Shown here: one piece after another, positions 13,128-21,819 of the stretch | How positions within the stretch are numbered: position 1 is the stretch's first letter | How the letters are laid out: each line of letters begins with the position of its first letter | Source of the DNA: Escherichia coli | Lineage (GTDB): Bacteria; Pseudomonadota; Gammaproteobacteria; Enterobacterales; Enterobacteriaceae | Reading direction: 5' to 3' (one strand) | Length of the DNA stretch: 64,000 nucleotides | NCBI RefSeq assembly: GCF_017348835.2 | Contig: NZ_CP071375.1 | Made by a program: the position numbers and the translations under genes | The notes under the pieces: generated by a model | Seen by the model: the letters and a program-made list of their open reading frames with translations, nothing else | The model's database searches: none | What the model was told of the DNA's origin: nothing

Positions 13128-14333
13128 TTGAGCAAGACACCACTGACAGCAAAGGCCATAGAGGCCGCACAACCGCAGGACAAGCCCTATAAACTCACCG
13201 ATTCACAGACACCTGGCCTGTTTTTGCTGGTCCATCCCAACGGCAGCAAATACTGGCGATTCCGGTATTGGATAGACAAGAAGGAGCGGTTACAGGCTAT
13301 TGGGGTGTATCCGCTGATTAGCCTCAAGGAAGCCCGCAAACGCGCCACAGAGAGCCGTTTACTGATAGCCCAGGGAATTGACCCAATGGATTTGGCACGC
13401 AAGGAGAAAGCCATTGATGCTCTTAATGCTATCGCCAGTTTTAAAGCTGTAGCAGAAGACTGGATGGCTACCAAGGTGAGCGGATGGAGTGAGAGCTATA
13501 CAAAGCAGGTCAGATCGGCACTAGAGAAAGATGTTTACCCCGTGCTAGGTAAGCGGTCGATAGTGGATATAACGGCCCGTGACGTGCTGGCGTTACTACA
13601 GAAAAAGGAGCGCACCGCACCGGAACAAGCCAGGAAATTACGCCAGCGTATCGGGGAGATCTTCAAATTTGCCGTTATCACTGAACTGGTTAACCGGAAT
13701 CCGGTTGCAGATCTGGATACGGCACTGAAAGCCAGACGCCCAGGCCATAACGCGTGGATACCGATTAATGAAATTCCGGCCTTCTACAAAGCCCTTGAGA
13801 GAGCTGGGAGCGTTCAGATTCAGACGGCAATACTTTTGCTCATCCTCACAGCTTTGAGGACGGCAGAATTGCGCCTGATGCGCTGGGAATGGGTAGATCT
13901 GCAATCGGCAACAATCACATTGCCCGCTGAAGTCATGAAGGCCCGCCGACCGCATGTTGTCCCGCTATCCCGGCAGGCGGTCGAGCTATTACAGGACCAG
14001 TTTACCCGCAGCGGATACAGTGCTTTCGTCTTTCCTGGCCGATTCATGGACAAGCCACTTTCAGCCAGTGCCATCCTTAAAGCCCTGGAGCGTATCGGAT
14101 ACAAGTCGATAGCCACAGGCCACGGCTGGCGGACCACCTTTTCAACGGCGCTTAATGAGTCCGGCAGGTACTCACCAGACTGGATCGAAATCCAACTGGC
14201 CCACGTTCCGAAAGGCGTGCGCGGTGTTTATAACCAGGCGGCCTACCTGAAGCAACGACGGGCCATGATGCAGGATTATAGCGACTGTATTGATTCAATA
14301 CTGGCTGGTGACGGTAATCCACTTGAACCGTGA
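13128..14333 (+). CDS. intZ: P4-family tyrosine site-specific integrase
   Basis: 401-aa ORF; AP2-like N-terminal domain; C-terminal catalytic region with R..HGWR..Y signature (HGWRTTFSTAL, RGVYNQAAY); first island gene beside the left repeat. Confidence 0.88.
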   Translation: MSKTPLTAKAIEAAQPQDKPYKLTDSQTPGLFLLVHPNGSKYWRFRYWIDKKERLQAIGVYPLISLKEARKRATESRLLIAQGIDPMDLARKEKAIDALNAIASFKAVAEDWMATKVSGWSESYTKQVRSALEKDVYPVLGKRSIVDITARDVLALLQKKERTAPEQARKLRQRIGEIFKFAVITELVNRNPVADLDTALKARRPGHNAWIPINEIPAFYKALERAGSVQIQTAILLLILTALRTAELRLMRWEWVDLQSATITLPAEVMKARRPHVVPLSRQAVELLQDQFTRSGYSAFVFPGRFMDKPLSASAILKALERIGYKSIATGHGWRTTFSTALNESGRYSPDWIEIQLAHVPKGVRGVYNQAAYLKQRRAMMQDYSDCIDSILAGDGNPLEP

Positions 14334-14455
14334 ACTATAAGGCCGGGTTTATACTCAATATCGACGGTTGAAGCGCTCAAAAAACAACCGTGACAACCGT
14401 CACAAATATGCAATGTCAATGATCTGAATCAATAAATTGCCAATTCTTCGTTTCC

Positions 14456-14470
14456 ACTTTCGAATGAAAG
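14456..14470. repeat. 15-bp motif actttcgaatgaaag, copy 1 (internal inverted repeat ctttc/gaaag)
   Basis: Exact duplicate of 14591-14605. Confidence 0.7.
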
Positions 14471-14590
14471 CAAGATGCAGAAAAATAAATCACCATGAAA
14501 TCATGTACTTATTAATTTTGACCAAATGGTCCAAAATATCCTCGGTGAATCCATGCTTGCCACAGCCAGATGATTAATATTTAACCCATG

Positions 14591-14605
14591 ACTTTCGAAT
14601 GAAAG
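14591..14605. repeat. 15-bp motif actttcgaatgaaag, copy 2
   Basis: Exact duplicate of 14456-14470, 135 bp away, in AT-rich non-coding DNA. Confidence 0.7.
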
Positions 14606-14733
14606 TAAATTGATAAAAAAGTCAGTGTACACTAACTAAATCGAATATTTTTTGCGCTATGTTTGAATGATAATTGAGCAAAACTTTCGCAAGGTGTGAC
14701 GATGTGAGTAATTAATTTTAACTCTACAATAAA

Positions 14734-14791
14734 CCCATCCCGACAGGGATGGTACCTGGAGCGGAGCGAGAGGGACCATCCCCCTGTTTTT
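14734..14791 (+). terminator. Nested hairpins followed by a T-run (terminator-like; may also act on the minus strand)
   Basis: cccatcccgacagggatgg hairpin overlapping ggatggtacc..N16..gggaccatcc stem, then ccctgttttt. Confidence 0.45.
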
Positions 14792-14884
14792 AGTCTTTTG
14801 AAGTTAGTTTTTTAAGGGATTAAATAATTTTGCCTCAAATGAGACCACACCATACAAGGCCAAAAACAATCAGTATTGCGTGGA

Positions 14885-15400
14885 TCAGGCTGGTTTTTTA
14901 ACTATATACCCCGTATGCCAAGGATTCTGATCGCGCGGCATCGGGTCCGCCTTGATAGACTCATAAAACTTATCAGCCATCTCAGCCACAAACTGTACAG
15001 AGGATTCGAACTCAGCGTTTTTGTGTGCGGGAGGAAACCAGAAGTCTAACACGCCAGCATTTCTATTTTTACATACAGCGTATATAAGATAAGCATCAGA
15101 TGTAGGGGTAACTTTTTCGAAACCACCGGGACCATAACGACCAGTAGACCAGTCATCCCAGCATTGTTCTGTCCCGCTATAGCCGTACTGATTGGTATAA
15201 AGACCAATATTTACATGGACTTTACGTAAGTGGATAGGATATACACACGGGGGTTTATGGAAAAGAGTATCCTTTCCAAAATCAGGATGATGTCCATATC
15301 TCCAATGATAAATAAACGAATCCTTAAAGCTCTTTAATTCATCGTTTGTTTTAAACTTATTATCACTGTAGACCTTACCAATAAATTCATTCTGGACCAT
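14885..15400 (-). CDS. Hypothetical protein (171 aa), distal gene of two-gene island cassette
   Basis: ORF 14885-15403; ATG at 15398-15400; overlaps upstream gene by 14 nt; Trp/Tyr/His-rich, no family recognised. Confidence 0.6.
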   Translation of the reverse strand: MVQNEFIGKVYSDNKFKTNDELKSFKDSFIYHWRYGHHPDFGKDTLFHKPPCVYPIHLRKVHVNIGLYTNQYGYSGTEQCWDDWSTGRYGPGGFEKVTPTSDAYLIYAVCKNRNAGVLDFWFPPAHKNAEFESSVQFVAEMADKFYESIKADPMPRDQNPWHTGYIVKKPA

Positions 15401-15734
15401 CAAAGCTTACACTCTTTAAGCGTTCTTCTCGTGAATCGAATAAATCTTTTGATAAATCACACGCTTGTGTGAACGTCATTTTTTTTACTCGTGGTACAGC
15501 CATAGGCGAGGCCGCATTCATCACTTTGTTTTCTTCGTGATCGAGAGTAGCAGTGTAGCGAAACATGACACTTTTACCGCGCACCAACTGGTATCCTAGT
15601 CGATACGCTAACGCGTCAAGATGCGTCAGACGATTTGTTTTACGCAAGCCAGTCATAGCTTTTGGCTTACGAGTGCGCACAGAAAGGGATTTCCCTTCTC
15701 GCTTAGTCGCAAACAAAGTAACTATTTTTGACAT
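15387..15734 (-). CDS. Hypothetical basic protein (115 aa), proximal gene of two-gene island cassette
   Basis: ATG 15732-15734 preceded by GGAGA RBS; Lys/Arg-rich; stop overlaps start of downstream gene. Confidence 0.55.
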   Translation of the reverse strand: MSKIVTLFATKREGKSLSVRTRKPKAMTGLRKTNRLTHLDALAYRLGYQLVRGKSVMFRYTATLDHEENKVMNAASPMAVPRVKKMTFTQACDLSKDLFDSREERLKSVSFDGPE

Positions 15735-16290
15735 GGTATCTCCTGACATCAATCTGCTAAGGCCATTGTGCCTTGTTTGAATAGTAAACTATTCGCCCAA
15801 TCTACACCAGTGATTTTCTTGACGCCAATAGTAAAGGCAGCATTGCCCACCACAGGCAGACAATGAGACTTCAGATAGCGCACCTTCTATCGCGCACGCG
15901 CTCAATAAAACCAACGACACCGCCATCCTGCCTGACCGATGTTTTTAACCAGCGTATACAGAGAAACAGACAACAGCATGAAATCAGCGTATATCCAGGT
16001 GCAGACGGCACTATCACACAACGCACAGCAGGCTGAGGTGAACACTCAAGCAACTTTATCCCCGCCACCGACCACCGCAAACTATCATGACCGTGCCAAA
16101 TTCAAAAGGAATGGCCCATATAACGCGATGAACACACATAAGCGCTACACTTGCTTACCTGAAAACTTCACAGCGTCACAGCGCGTTTTAGACACGTTAA
16201 AATTAATGAGATTTCATTAAATTTTCACCAGACACCGGAACAAGCCTATAAATCAAAAATGAATTACCGACATGCGCCGCTGGCGTTCAC

Positions 16291-16310
16291 AGGAAGAATC
16301 AATAACTTAG
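16291..16310. repeat. Imperfect direct repeat aggaagaatcaataacttag, copy 1
   Basis: 17/20 identical to 16391-16410, exactly 100 bp downstream. Confidence 0.55.
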
Positions 16311-16390
16311 GCCAATGGCGAAAGTTAAACAAAATCAAGAACTTGCAGAAATGCAGGATGAAGCAGCCGATGTGCCCCGTTGGATTTTAC

Positions 16391-16410
16391 CAGAAGAATC
16401 AACAAGTTAG
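16391..16410. repeat. Imperfect direct repeat cagaagaatcaacaagttag, copy 2
   Basis: See 16291-16310. Confidence 0.55.
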
Positions 16411-16662
16411 ACTCGGTGATTTCACCGACTCCTGCCGGACTACTGACCAGATCGAACCATTCCCCAAATTTGGGGAGAGCAAACCACACGCAGATCCTGC
16501 CAGGCTATTTCATCCCACCGCATCACGTATTTGCACACTTCCCCGCTGACGTGCTCATTTTGATAACGAGTTACCCGCTAGCCCTTGCCACATCACCATT
16601 TGTCGCGCTTTGACTAAATTAGCGACGTGCCTGTTATAGCGATACGCTAGTTATGCAGAAAG

Positions 16663-16682
16663 CGCGACATATCCAGCAACCA
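16663..16682. repeat. Exact 20-bp direct repeat cgcgacatatccagcaacca, copy 1
   Basis: Identical to 16790-16809; lies just upstream of the 16707 ORF start. Confidence 0.7.
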
Positions 16683-16706
16683 TGCACCCTACAGAGGAAT
16701 TGAATC

Positions 16707-17501: not shown

Positions 17502-17693
17502 ATGAATGATAGCGAATTAATGACGGTGAACGAGGTAGCCGCTTTATTCGGCGTTACCCGTCGGACAATATTCCGGTGGATGAACAAGATTAAAGGCTGG
17601 CCCGTCCCGGTCAGTCCGATTGGCTCAAGAATTAAGTTTATCCGATCTGAGATTTTGGAATTCTATAAAAACAAAGGCGCTCGCCACCAATGA
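17502..17693 (+). CDS. AlpA/Xis-like small DNA-binding regulator (phage transcriptional regulator family)
   Basis: 63-aa ORF with HTH-like segment VNEVAALFGVTRRTIFRWM; GAGGTGA RBS. Confidence 0.65.
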   Translation: MNDSELMTVNEVAALFGVTRRTIFRWMNKIKGWPVPVSPIGSRIKFIRSEILEFYKNKGARHQ

Positions 17694-17769
17694 AAACAGC
17701 TACTGAGATTATCAAATAACCTATTGATTTAAAAAGCTAGCTACCGCAATTTCTGAAGGAATAGGCAGC

Positions 17770-18096
17770 ATGAAAATCAAAGCAAACACAATTAAAGAAA
17801 TAACATCAATCAAAGTAAAAGGAGCAGATGCCATGCATTCATTAGATAGTTATTTTCAGCGCACGACAGCCCCTAAATCAGCCGCCCAGGAACGCCGTGA
17901 GGAATTCCAGGAAAAAGTGATGCGTTCTGCTGATTATATTGCGGACAAGTTCGCGGAAACGGTTCGGCCACTTGTTGATGAAGTAGCTGATAAACTTCAG
18001 TCTGAAATGCCGGAAGACATGGAAGGCACTGCAAAGGCGCGACTCCTTTTTGAATTAAGTCGTCGTTTCGGCGTGTCAATAAGCACTTTTAAATAA
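17770..18096 (+). CDS. Hypothetical phage protein (108 aa)
   Basis: ORF in co-directional island gene string; no family recognised. Confidence 0.5.
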   Translation: MKIKANTIKEITSIKVKGADAMHSLDSYFQRTTAPKSAAQERREEFQEKVMRSADYIADKFAETVRPLVDEVADKLQSEMPEDMEGTAKARLLFELSRRFGVSISTFK

Positions 18097-18113
18097 TCGG
18101 AGGAGGAAAGACA

Positions 18114-18656
18114 ATGGACGCATTTGATGTACTGACAAACAAAGGCGATGAACTGGTAGCACAGCGTGATAAAACCGCCAACGAAGGGGAACGCGCACTG
18201 TTAAATAAGCAGATTAAAGCGATCCGTATGGCCCAGTTTAAATTAATCAGCAATGAAGTTATCGAAAAAATTAAACCGCAGATCCCACAAATCGTTGCTG
18301 ACGCTATTAAAGCCGCCGGACTGGAGAAACGCATTGCCGGGCTGAAAACGAACGCAGAGAAAATGGAGATGCACAAACAGAGCGGTGCTCCGACTCCGGA
18401 TGAGTACTTCTCACCGGATGCTGAGTTTATGGCGCAGGTTGAGGAACGTCTGGGTAGCTGTCTCACCGAGGAACAGTGTCGCTATTTTGATGGAGTGGAT
18501 AGTTCGGCAGGTATTGACCTGAACTCGTATTTCGGTCGTGAAATTGAGCATTTTGATGCCGCCCCGTCTATGCCGGAGCCAGAACCAGAAATGGCCGCCG
18601 ATCCTGAAGCTGAGCAACGGAAACGCGTATTCAATGCGATAGGGATTCGGTACTGA
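18114..18656 (+). CDS. Hypothetical phage protein (180 aa), acidic C-terminus
   Basis: ORF preceded by GGAGGAAAG RBS (18092-18108); no family recognised. Confidence 0.55.
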   Translation: MDAFDVLTNKGDELVAQRDKTANEGERALLNKQIKAIRMAQFKLISNEVIEKIKPQIPQIVADAIKAAGLEKRIAGLKTNAEKMEMHKQSGAPTPDEYFSPDAEFMAQVEERLGSCLTEEQCRYFDGVDSSAGIDLNSYFGREIEHFDAAPSMPEPEPEMAADPEAEQRKRVFNAIGIRY

Positions 18657-18707
18657 TCGGATAAAAGAAAGCCGGGAATTACCCCGGCTGACTTAACAAT
18701 GTGACCA

Positions 18708-19082
18708 ATGAACAAATCGGACAAGACAAACAGGATAAGCAGTCTCGAAACAATGTTCGGGAACTATATTAGCACAAGTCCGGAGAAAATCATCATGTTG
18801 GCACTACGCATCATGCAGGGCATCGCTAAGACCCTCGCAGAACATGTCTTAGACCTGAAACATTCGCCACTGAGCAAACAGGCCATGAAGCGCCAAACGC
18901 TTCGTCTGTGGGCTGAATATTCGCTTGGAACTATCAATAAAATCATCGACATGAAATCGGGGCCGAGCAACCAGAGCGCGGAGGAAATGGAGTTCATCAG
19001 GCGTTTAATTCTCATTCGCAGAGACATTCATAGCCAGTTACACAGCGTGGGAATCGATATTAATGATGGGACGGGCGATTAA
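18708..19082 (+). CDS. Hypothetical phage protein (124 aa)
   Basis: ORF in co-directional gene string. Confidence 0.45.
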   Translation: MNKSDKTNRISSLETMFGNYISTSPEKIIMLALRIMQGIAKTLAEHVLDLKHSPLSKQAMKRQTLRLWAEYSLGTINKIIDMKSGPSNQSAEEMEFIRRLILIRRDIHSQLHSVGIDINDGTGD

Positions 19083-19120
19083 TTTTCGGACAAGTACTAT
19101 GCGCGCGCGAGGAGCTGAAC

Positions 19121-19351
19121 ATGAAGCAAGATATTGCAGACAGGCTGGAGATACTCGAAGGCCAGCGGGCAGAAGCGAAACAACTACGTAAGCAGGCCAG
19201 AAGAGCGCACAGGAACTACGAAGCAGAATCACTGACCGCTTTCATCAACTTCACAAACCGTTGCATCCTGGAGTGTTACAGGGAGGATGCAGAAAACTGG
19301 CTGGATTCATTGCCAGAACAGACTCTGCATGAACTGAACGGCGACCAGTAA
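19121..19351 (+). CDS. Hypothetical phage protein (76 aa)
   Basis: ORF with GAGGAG RBS upstream. Confidence 0.45.
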   Translation: MKQDIADRLEILEGQRAEAKQLRKQARRAHRNYEAESLTAFINFTNRCILECYREDAENWLDSLPEQTLHELNGDQ

Positions 19352-19638
19352 ATAAATCCAGTACGTTTCCCGCAGTGCGCATAACGTACATTATGTGAAA
19401 AACGATATGGATATATATCAGTCTGACTTCAATGAAGAAAACGGACTTCCAGCATCAACCACAAAGAAGTATGGCTAATGCAGCTTTATAAGCCATTGAT
19501 TCTATTAAACGATATTTTTTGTGATTGGTTGAAGCAAACCAAAACACGATGCCACTGAAGCGTTAATAAACTGTTTCAATGTGAAATTATCAGAGTAAAG
19601 AACAATTTGGAGGGTCCGCAAACGCGGATAACAATATC

Positions 19639-21819
19639 ATGAGTGGAAATCTCGGGACCATATACTACGAGGTCGATGCCCGCACTGGGAAACTTCTTAT
19701 CGCGCAACAGCAGGCGGAAGAGGCGTTCGATCGCATTGAACGAGGAGCGCGGAAGGCTGATAGCGGCGTCAAAAAGTTAAATACGCAGATGACTAAAACA
19801 TCAGCCGCAGTCAAAACCAACCTTTCCCCGGCAATCCGTAACGCATCATACCAGATCGCAGACCTTGCCACTCAATTGCAGATGGGCGGTAATGCGCTTC
19901 AGGCGTTCGCTGTGCAGGGTGCGCAGTTATTAGCTGGCTTTGGCACGATGGGCGCGGTAGCTGGCGCGGTGCTGGCTATCGCTGGCGCTATGGGTGGAAG
20001 CCTGGCACAAGGCGCTGATAGTGCAGCCGGATCGGTTGAGTATCTGGACAAGGCGATCACCAAACTGAACGAGGTCATAGCTGTAAATGAACAGGGCGTG
20101 ACGGTGATGAGTGATAGTTACGCCAGACTTTCTAAGGTTAACGCTGAAGTAGCGAAACAGATGCGGAACATGGCTGAAATTCAGGCAATTGCAGCACTGC
20201 GTGACCTGAAAGAACAGGCAAGCCAGGCACAGGGGGAAATGTCGTCATTCTGGCGCAGCTTGCAGGGTGGTAAAGCTGACGCAGCAGCAGCAGCACAGGC
20301 ACTTGATGATCTTGGAATCACAACCAACGACTACAAAGAGGCGATAGCCATACTGAACGCCAATCAGCCGGATACACAGGCGCAAATGGCAACGCTAGCT
20401 AAGTCCGTGATGTACATAGGCGAGGAATACAACCTGACAAACCAGCAAGCCTACGAGTTCATCCGAGCACTAAATAGGGCCGCGACAACGAGAACGCCGG
20501 AAGCCATGCAGGAACTATCGGGCTTCATGCAGGTATTGCTACAGGACACCGAAAACGGTAACGAGGCATTCCGTGAACTGGCTATCAAATTCGTTGATGC
20601 ACAAACCAAAGGCGCAATGCTGGAAGACCAACTAAACCGACTGAAAGGCGCTATCAGTGACGCAGCCACAGAAGCCAGAAACGCCAATTTTACCACTATG
20701 CTCAACACCGTCGCCGCACGCCTGGCAGCCATTGAGCAAGGTTGGGAGGCAGGCGTTAGGATGCAGATGAAAGCCCAGGGCTACACTGAAGAGCAGATCG
20801 ATGAATATGTGAACATGGAAACGGCGTACCGTGATGCAAAAGCCGCTTTGGACGAGAAGAATAAGGCCGACCGTGAAGCTATTGCGCTATCCAAACGCCA
20901 GGCCGCAGAAGCAGCCCGCAAGGCAAAACAGGAAGAAGCTGAAGCACAACGCAAGGCCAAACAGTTAGCCGCGCAGAAGGAGCAGGCAGGACGCTTTACG
21001 CAGCAAGTAATGACGGAATACCTGACGACCGTAGATCCGGCAACAGGCAAGGCGTTTAACCCTGCCGCACAAGTAGAAATGCAGGAGCAGCAGAAGAAAG
21101 CGGCGCTGGATAAATACAGACAGTTGGGCGTCCTGGATGAACAGCAGTACCAGAACACGCTAACCGCCATCCAGAAAACCGCGTCAATGCGCCGCCAGCA
21201 AATCATCAAAGACGAGGCCGACACGTTATTCAACAATCAGCAACAGTTGATCGGCACATTTGGCGATTTCTTCGGTGAACTGTCTGGAGTCATAGCAGAC
21301 GGTGCAGGTGAGCAAAACGCGGCATATCAAGCGCTATTTGCTGTGCAGAAGGGTTTTGTATTGGCATCAGCAGCTTTAAGCCTTCAGAAAGCGCTTGCTG
21401 AGGCAAACGCCTTGCCTTTCCCGGCTAATCTTCCGGCCTATGCGCAAGCTATGTCAGCAGGCACGCAGATCATTTCAGCTATTCGTGGAATAGCTTTCGG
21501 TGGCGGACGCTACAACGGCGGCGCGGTTGGTGCTGGCAACCTGTACCGCGTGGGTGAACACGGTAAGCCTGAGATATTCAAGGCGAACAATGGCAGCCAG
21601 TACATGATCCCAGGTGATAACGGTCGCGTGATAAGTAATCGTGACATTGGCGGCGGTGGCGGCGTAACAATCAACAGCCCGATCACCATTAACACTACGA
21701 ATGGCTTCAGTGATGAAGACTCAAGGCGTCTTGAGGAAGCGATGAAGCGCGTAGCTATGGGCGTTTGCAGGCAGGAGTCAACCAGACCGGGAGGAATGTT
21801 AGCCCCGCGCCGTCGTTAA
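19639..21819 (+). CDS. Phage tail tape-measure-like protein (lambdoid H-like), orphan
   Basis: 726-aa Ala/Gln-rich coiled-coil ORF; C-terminal GNLYR motif and Gly-rich tail as in lambda H; no neighbouring tail genes. Confidence 0.6.
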   Translation: MSGNLGTIYYEVDARTGKLLIAQQQAEEAFDRIERGARKADSGVKKLNTQMTKTSAAVKTNLSPAIRNASYQIADLATQLQMGGNALQAFAVQGAQLLAGFGTMGAVAGAVLAIAGAMGGSLAQGADSAAGSVEYLDKAITKLNEVIAVNEQGVTVMSDSYARLSKVNAEVAKQMRNMAEIQAIAALRDLKEQASQAQGEMSSFWRSLQGGKADAAAAAQALDDLGITTNDYKEAIAILNANQPDTQAQMATLAKSVMYIGEEYNLTNQQAYEFIRALNRAATTRTPEAMQELSGFMQVLLQDTENGNEAFRELAIKFVDAQTKGAMLEDQLNRLKGAISDAATEARNANFTTMLNTVAARLAAIEQGWEAGVRMQMKAQGYTEEQIDEYVNMETAYRDAKAALDEKNKADREAIALSKRQAAEAARKAKQEEAEAQRKAKQLAAQKEQAGRFTQQVMTEYLTTVDPATGKAFNPAAQVEMQEQQKKAALDKYRQLGVLDEQQYQNTLTAIQKTASMRRQQIIKDEADTLFNNQQQLIGTFGDFFGELSGVIADGAGEQNAAYQALFAVQKGFVLASAALSLQKALAEANALPFPANLPAYAQAMSAGTQIISAIRGIAFGGGRYNGGAVGAGNLYRVGEHGKPEIFKANNGSQYMIPGDNGRVISNRDIGGGGGVTINSPITINTTNGFSDEDSRRLEEAMKRVAMGVCRQESTRPGGMLAPRRR

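Follow-up and report, generated by a model that had tools for sequence, protein, structure and literature searches.

The two overlapping genes beside the integrase of a genomic island in this E. coli genome very probably form a two-gene type II toxin-antitoxin cassette, in which a YafO-type RNase would be held by the C-terminal helices of its partner. The window analyzed here is a stretch of 64,000 nucleotides of contig NZ_CP071375.1. An initial annotation, made from the letters alone, had read the pair as toxin-antitoxin-like, and this reading has held: the larger protein is assigned to the YafO family of toxins with a predicted RelE fold, and the pair is co-inherited with a conserved overlap. 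The same annotation had proposed an undescribed system, which has to be given up, as the toxin family is known and experimentally characterized and RefSeq already names the larger protein "type II toxin-antitoxin system YafO family toxin." The cassette is a variant of the familiar YafO system, not a new system. Its genes and their signals are:

14885..15400, minus strand: toxin gene, 171 aa plus stop (open reading frame and RefSeq CDS WP_000250467.1)
15387..15734, minus strand: antitoxin-candidate gene, 115 aa plus stop (open reading frame and RefSeq CDS WP_000036755.1, "hypothetical protein")
15387..15400, minus strand: 14-nt overlap of antitoxin stop and toxin start, ATGGTCCAGAATGA (from sequence)
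15739..15744, minus strand: Shine-Dalgarno sequence AGGAGA, 4 nt 5′ of the ATG of the 115-aa gene (from sequence)

Both genes are convergent with the integrase gene intZ. The smaller runs from the ATG at 15734 to a TGA at 15389-15387 and the larger from the ATG at 15400 to a stop at 14887-14885, and the coordinates, the 14-nt overlap and the ribosome binding site before ATG 15734 are all as first reported. So is the composition of the products, with a small protein rich in Lys and Arg (K+R = 20%, pI 10.2) and a large one rich in Trp, Tyr and His (W+Y+H = 14.6%). The overlap implies that translation of the two genes is coupled. No genes are annotated on either side of the pair, in 14334-14884 and 15735-16706, and gaps of this length could suggest that the two frames arose by chance, or are pseudogenes in decay, within island DNA that codes for nothing. 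The probability of this is negligible, and the conservation data refute it. The frames are kept in relatives, being intact in 17/17 E. coli genomes with a match spanning the cassette as well as in several other genera, and homologues occur in Klebsiella, Citrobacter, Serratia, Yersinia, Enterobacter, and Cronobacter. In comparisons with orthologues from Klebsiella and Citrobacter, the large gene has a dN/dS of 0.03-0.07 and the small gene a dN/dS of 0.12-0.29, both far below 1, and the fold of the toxin is predicted with confidence. RefSeq carries both ORFs as CDS in the identical sequence of E. coli PE164. The two ORFs are genuine genes under purifying selection.

As judged from profile comparisons and structural models, the 171-aa protein is a divergent, long-form toxin of the YafO family with a RelE/ParE fold. 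The Pfam model PF13957 (YafO_toxin) matches it over its full length (model positions 13-100 of 101), but the match is weak and under usual significance (E 0.0093, 16.5 bits); among 13 subfamily homologues, the same model reaches E<=1e-3 in two and E<=0.1 in eight. No NCBIfam model matches either the 171-aa or the 115-aa protein, and in PHROGs the larger protein falls into phrog_1651 (E 1e-42), which is filed under "unknown function." Homology to the toxin of the K-12 YafN-YafO system (PF13957) is supported by both hhalign and Foldseek. An hhalign comparison of the toxin subfamily alignment with K-12 YafO gave a probability of 78% (E 1.7e-5), and one with an alignment of 16 genuine YafO sequences gave 89.8% (E 1.7e-6, 104 columns). 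Three motifs, FG[KR]D, T-S/N-D and P-x-A-H-K, are common to the subfamily and to YafO and are invariant in both; the register of the central His motif differs between the two hhalign runs. The AlphaFold2 model of the toxin (pLDDT 76.6, pTM 0.77) has the RelE-like alpha/beta core of the RelE/ParE (BECR-fold) superfamily. When this model was searched with Foldseek against AFDB50, the best 50 matches were all YafO-family proteins or unnamed relatives, among them canonical YafO of about 130 aa (E 1e-5 to 1e-4). A search of the toxin alignment against PDB sequences gave a chance match only, and no solved YafO-family structure was matched by sequence. Compared with HigB2 (5mje), HigB1 (7nbu), RelE, YoeB, and YafQ, all of the RelE/ParE, BECR-fold group, identity is only 5-16%, and catalytic residues cannot be transferred from them.

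The length of the toxin sets it apart from the 132-aa YafO of K-12. Only the longer protein carries a C-terminal extension and, at residues 64-100, an insertion of ~35 aa, within which C80, W81, and W84 are invariant in the subfamily alignment. H62, D102, and H126 of the toxin are invariant as well. The insertion is also the low-confidence region of the AlphaFold2 model. In E. coli K-12, YafO is an mRNA-cleaving inhibitor of translation (PMC2814082, PMC8546651), for which dependence on the ribosome has been questioned (PMC8546651). Because of this dispute, the mode of mRNA cleavage cannot be carried over from YafO to the protein studied here.

The 115-aa partner is probably an antitoxin of an unclassified family. 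It has no match in Pfam, NCBIfam, PHROGs, PADLOC, or PDB sequences. Kinship with YafN, the Phd/YefM-type antitoxin of the K-12 system, was considered and ruled out, as hhalign against YafN gave a probability of 0.1% with no Pfam hit; the two antitoxins are unrelated. The protein is laid out as a basic N-terminal part (residues 1-77) followed by a conserved C-terminal module (residues ~80-115), PRVKKMTFTQACDLSKDLFDSREERLKSVSFDGPE. An exhaustive HMMER search of 1.84 billion representative proteins places its family in only 24 clusters at 50% identity. Members are 105-190 aa long and have only the last ~35 residues in common, their N-termini being very diverse. This shared part comes in two flavors, one reading ...PRVxKMSFTEAxxLSRxLxDSRxERLxxAxFDGPE and the other ...REIPKMSxEQSHALSRRMFARTAEDMAQELYDDAE. 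The last residues, F/Y-D-x-x-E, are invariant, partly because they are dual coding with the overlapping start of the toxin gene. Pfam domains were found in 0/21 family members, with no recognizable DNA-binding domain.

Structure prediction points in the same direction as the alignments. A single-chain AlphaFold2 model of partner, linker and toxin was built on the paired alignment. Here residues 80-112 of the partner are predicted to form two helices (pLDDT 85-88), and residues 1-77 do not reach 50. The toxin insertion, at pLDDT 35-58 when the toxin is modeled alone, rises to 56-69 in the fused model. The model suggests, short of proof, that the partner module docks on the toxin. The partner also evolves faster than the toxin, as estimated by dN/dS, which is typical of antitoxins.

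Pairing of the two genes is strict. In 8/8 independent lineages from three mobile-element contexts, the toxin start lies within the last 11-14 nt of an upstream gene, and a partner gene lies 5′ of every toxin homologue on the fetched contigs, which come from Klebsiella, E. coli, Serratia, Citrobacter, Yersinia, and Enterobacter. These related loci were found through exact-protein contig look-ups, which were used because a scan of species-representative genomes with the toxin alignment gave 0 confirmed loci. Across eight pairs, toxin identity follows the identity of the C-terminal 36 residues of the partner (Mantel r 0.92, p 4e-4). The N-termini of the partners can be unrelated (15-17% identity) even where the toxins are 73-75% identical. 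Such a modular pattern would be expected of a toxin-neutralizing segment joined to an exchangeable second part. As far as could be found, neither the partner family nor this modular architecture has been described. Beyond the island in the window, the pair occurs in AlpA-type islands and as a moron of temperate phages, between Bro-N, tail-fibre/tailspike, and lysis genes, including in Escherichia phage EC.W1-9. The family is present in 3/50,697 phage records.

The same data bear on the idea that the 171-aa protein keeps the YafO fold without arresting growth, for example as a domesticated RNA-binding or RNase factor of the mobile element, with the upstream protein as a co-translated accessory or regulatory factor in place of an antitoxin. 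The toxin has diverged strongly from YafO, its Pfam match is weak, its PHROG carries the label "unknown function," its conserved Cys/Trp-containing insertion of 35 aa and its C-terminal extension are absent from canonical YafO, and the partner lacks the hallmarks of known antitoxin families, all of which would suit such a role. Nevertheless, we regard it as quite improbable, because the motifs that it has in common with YafO do not vary within the subfamily and the pairing is strict. The co-inheritance, the conserved overlap and the C-terminal co-divergence are what toxin neutralization predicts, and the toxin is under very strong purifying selection.

Other genes were seen next to the related pairs. 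In AlpA-type islands of Klebsiella (locus L014, 5869-6369) and Serratia (L008, 5552-6049), the gene directly 3′ of the toxin codes for a ~166-aa protein that has a membrane helix at its N-terminus, and the two proteins are 32% identical (E 5e-24). No remnant of this gene was found in the window, and it is absent from the Citrobacter and phage contexts. As no more than two island lineages carry it, it was ruled out as a conserved third gene of the system; it may be separate cargo or a third component that is optional. In the same Serratia locus (L008, 2335-3227), ~2 kb from the YafO-type pair, a SocA_Panacea-domain gene and its 144-aa neighbor form a probable Panacea-type toxin-antitoxin pair. 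A Klebsiella prophage (L004, 2557-3166) carries a small moron of two genes, one for a protein of 86 aa and one for a DUF1902 protein of 85 aa, and this moron may be a second toxin-antitoxin-like pair.

The E. coli pair occupies a cargo slot whose content varies between strains, in line with the earlier reading of the genes as accessory cargo. Two features define the slot:

13128..14333, plus strand: intZ, P4-type tyrosine integrase (domains Arm-DNA-bind_3, Phage_int_M, and Phage_integrase)
14817..15770, minus strand: swappable cassette of 954 bp, consisting of the pair with 36 nt upstream and 68 nt downstream (blastn against E. coli Ceylon31)

The domain set of the integrase bears out its placement in the P4 family. 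The element as a whole belongs to the CPZ-55 family of islands, is 9 kb long, and has its insertion site between eutB and eutA. The GC content of the cassette is 41.8% vs. 52.7% for the whole window. In E. coli Ceylon31 and its relatives, 897 bp stand in place of the cassette between identical backbone flanks, and this allele encodes a different "YafO family toxin," of 159 aa, together with a basic ORF of 48 aa. The 48-aa ORF (NZ_CP076270.1, locus L002, 6904-7050, minus strand) has a pI of 11.7, is unannotated in RefSeq, overlaps the start of the 159-aa toxin gene by 16 nt and is probably its antitoxin. The intZ region was matched in 440 of 5,426 complete E. coli genomes, of which 17 carry this cassette and 64 match any part of it. 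In other genomes the slot is taken up by yffL (in K-12), by a gene for an HTH protein, or by pseudogenes.

The remaining island genes code for an AlpA-like HTH protein, for several small proteins without a known function, and for a tape-measure-like protein of 726 aa. The last (19639-21819, plus strand), named "hypothetical" in RefSeq, matches the phage tape-measure family phrog_1538 with an E-value of 3e-103, and no other scanned protein of the 9-kb island matched a phage structural family. A second segment that varies against Ceylon31 lies at 17666-19372 of the window. Ceylon31 carries other small genes there, and one of them encodes a "terminase small subunit-like protein," which hints at a satellite-like (PICI-type) lifestyle of the island family.

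The flanks of the cassette had initially been called repeat-rich, with terminator-like hairpins. Short repeats are there, limited to two-copy and trivial tandem ones, and terminator-like sites number six against 2.2 +/- 1.6 expected; "repeat-rich" is too strong, and the flanking hairpins do not exceed shuffled sequence in stability (z -0.8 to -1.2), so that they were ruled out as significant structures. The intergenic stretch 15735-16706 (~970 nt) consists of conserved island backbone at 15771-15914 and from 16140 on. A 225-bp segment, 15915-16139, is missing in Ceylon31, and an imperfect direct repeat of 44 nt, 75% identical, stands at 16267 and 16367. No Rfam family matched anywhere on the island, this stretch included. 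Two backbone features lie close to the cassette:

14735..14782, minus strand: inverted repeat downstream of the cassette, a terminator-like hairpin GGGATGGTCCCT...AGGTACCATCCC, then CCATCCCTGTCGGGATGG and a T-rich tail
15779..15828, minus strand: weak sigma-70-like candidate promoter with a palindrome, upstream of the cassette (from sequence)

The hairpin at 14735-14782 has a folding energy of -24.8 kcal/mol with a z-score of only -1.2 and is outside the swapped segment. The candidate promoter reads TTGGCG (15828-15823), an 18-nt spacer, and TAGATT (15804-15799), and is followed by the palindrome GAATAGT-TT-ACTATTC at 15794-15779, which is no more stable than shuffles. A promoter scan was silent on 15828-15799, because only 8/12 consensus positions match. 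The cassette brings only 36 nt of its own DNA 5′ of the start codon, so transcription probably starts in the shared backbone. The stretch 15779-15828 is common to strains with the alternative cassette, and since strains with other cargo share these flanks, we infer expression from a backbone promoter, for which TTGGCG/TAGATT would be the candidate. No operator-like palindrome was found within the cassette. Classic type II autoregulation is therefore unsupported, the partner having no DNA-binding domain and the cassette no operator; DNA-binding, autoregulating antitoxins are common among type II systems, though not universal.

Most of the related loci have a different arrangement upstream of the pair, where an exact TTACC-N5-GGTAA palindrome abuts a -10-like hexamer, as in TTGACG-N16-TAAGAT|TACC.... 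Copies were found at positions 2468, 2880, and 4392 of L004; 2085, 2497, and 4392 of L005; 5883 of L006; 3356, 4416, and 5865 of L010; 4950 of L014; 4947 of L017; and 3001, 3433, and 4564 of L020, with up to three exact copies per 10 kb. Both genes of the DUF1902 moron in L004 have a copy of their own (2468 and 2880). The palindrome was ruled out as an operator of the antitoxin, since the window lacks it and since unrelated moron genes of the same prophages have it upstream as well. Cargo genes seem to share it as a portable promoter/operator or as a 5′-leader hairpin.

Taken as a toxin-antitoxin cassette, the locus would work as follows. The 115-aa antitoxin would be translated first, and the toxin would be made by translational coupling through the overlap of the genes. 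The two-helix module of the partner (residues ~80-112) most likely binds and neutralizes the toxin, as its co-divergence with the toxin and the fused model suggest. The basic N-terminal part of the partner is interchangeable in evolution and mostly disordered in the prediction; it may confer proteolytic lability, and loss of the labile partner would free the toxin. Going by homology, the free toxin most likely cleaves mRNA, stops translation, and arrests growth as YafO does. The role of the cassette is most likely stabilization of the mobile element, by post-segregational or post-excision killing, and/or defence by abortive infection.

It is possible, though doubtful, that the main role is anti-phage, by abortive infection or superinfection exclusion, and that the pair is not a plain addiction module. 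In that case the labile partner would be depleted or titrated away during infection, for example by host shut-off or by a phage trigger that targets its variable N-terminus, and the freed RNase would halt synthesis of phage proteins; this is compatible with a toxin-antitoxin mechanism and differs in biological function. The variable cargo slot adjoins a P4-type integrase, and the cargo slots of P4-like satellites are known hotspots of defence genes (Rousset et al., 2022, PMC9122126). Like those P4-satellite and prophage hotspots (PMC9122126), the slot is integrase-proximal and variable, with conserved flanks and alternative cargo; unlike P4 satellites, the island is of the CPZ-55 type, sits in the eut operon, and has cargo that matches no known defence model. 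Homologous pairs are morons of temperate phages, two different YafO-type cassettes alternate at one site, and some modules of the RelE/ParE superfamily have defence activity (PMC11980606). Against this, neither protein matches a PADLOC model (PADLOC-DB v2, no family at E<=1), and the defence reading offered initially is for this reason without direct support. No publication on the toxin or the partner was found in the literature by accession, PHROG id, or CPZ-55. The family is rare among phage records, and toxin-antitoxin modules in such positions fit element maintenance equally well. A more elaborate proposal, which we consider unlikely, is that the pair is an unrecognized YafO-type branch in which a neutralizing peptide of ~35 aa is fused to freely exchanged, mostly disordered basic N-termini that would act as sensors of phage or of element loss, and which would circulate as promoter-less, plug-in anti-phage cargo between moron slots in temperate phages and integrase-proximal slots in satellite-like islands.

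The toxin-antitoxin cassette can be set beside systems already known. As in yafNO, the antitoxin gene precedes the toxin gene and the two are closely apposed; the antitoxin-to-toxin order is that of YafO systems (PMC11980606, Table 1). The genomic setting is different, with yafNO in the dinB operon and the present cassette in the cargo slots of mobile elements. Expression of yafNO is controlled by LexA. A second parallel is PaaA2, the antitoxin of paaR2-paaA2-parE2, which has no DNA-binding domain; chain 5czf, which was among the structural results, presumably belongs to that system. Like PaaA2, the partner is small, predicted to be largely disordered, and without a recognizable DNA-binding domain, with a short helical segment as its putative neutralizing part. 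Unlike in paaR2-paaA2-parE2, there is no separate regulator gene in the cassette, and no sequence relationship exists, so the analogy serves as a lead only.

What had been a mystery cassette becomes a member of a known toxin family, with a partner from an unannotated and unclassified family of probable antitoxins. The present practical value lies in better annotation, both of the antitoxin gene and of the 48-aa partner that RefSeq lacks in the alternative allele. A putative neutralizing module that is shared among members with shuffled N-termini provides a clean natural case of modular antitoxin evolution. The CPZ-55-family island in the eut operon offers an integrase-proximal expression slot in which different YafO-type cassettes replace one another while the flanks stay identical. 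If an anti-phage role were proven, a YafO-type module would be added to the catalogue of defence systems.
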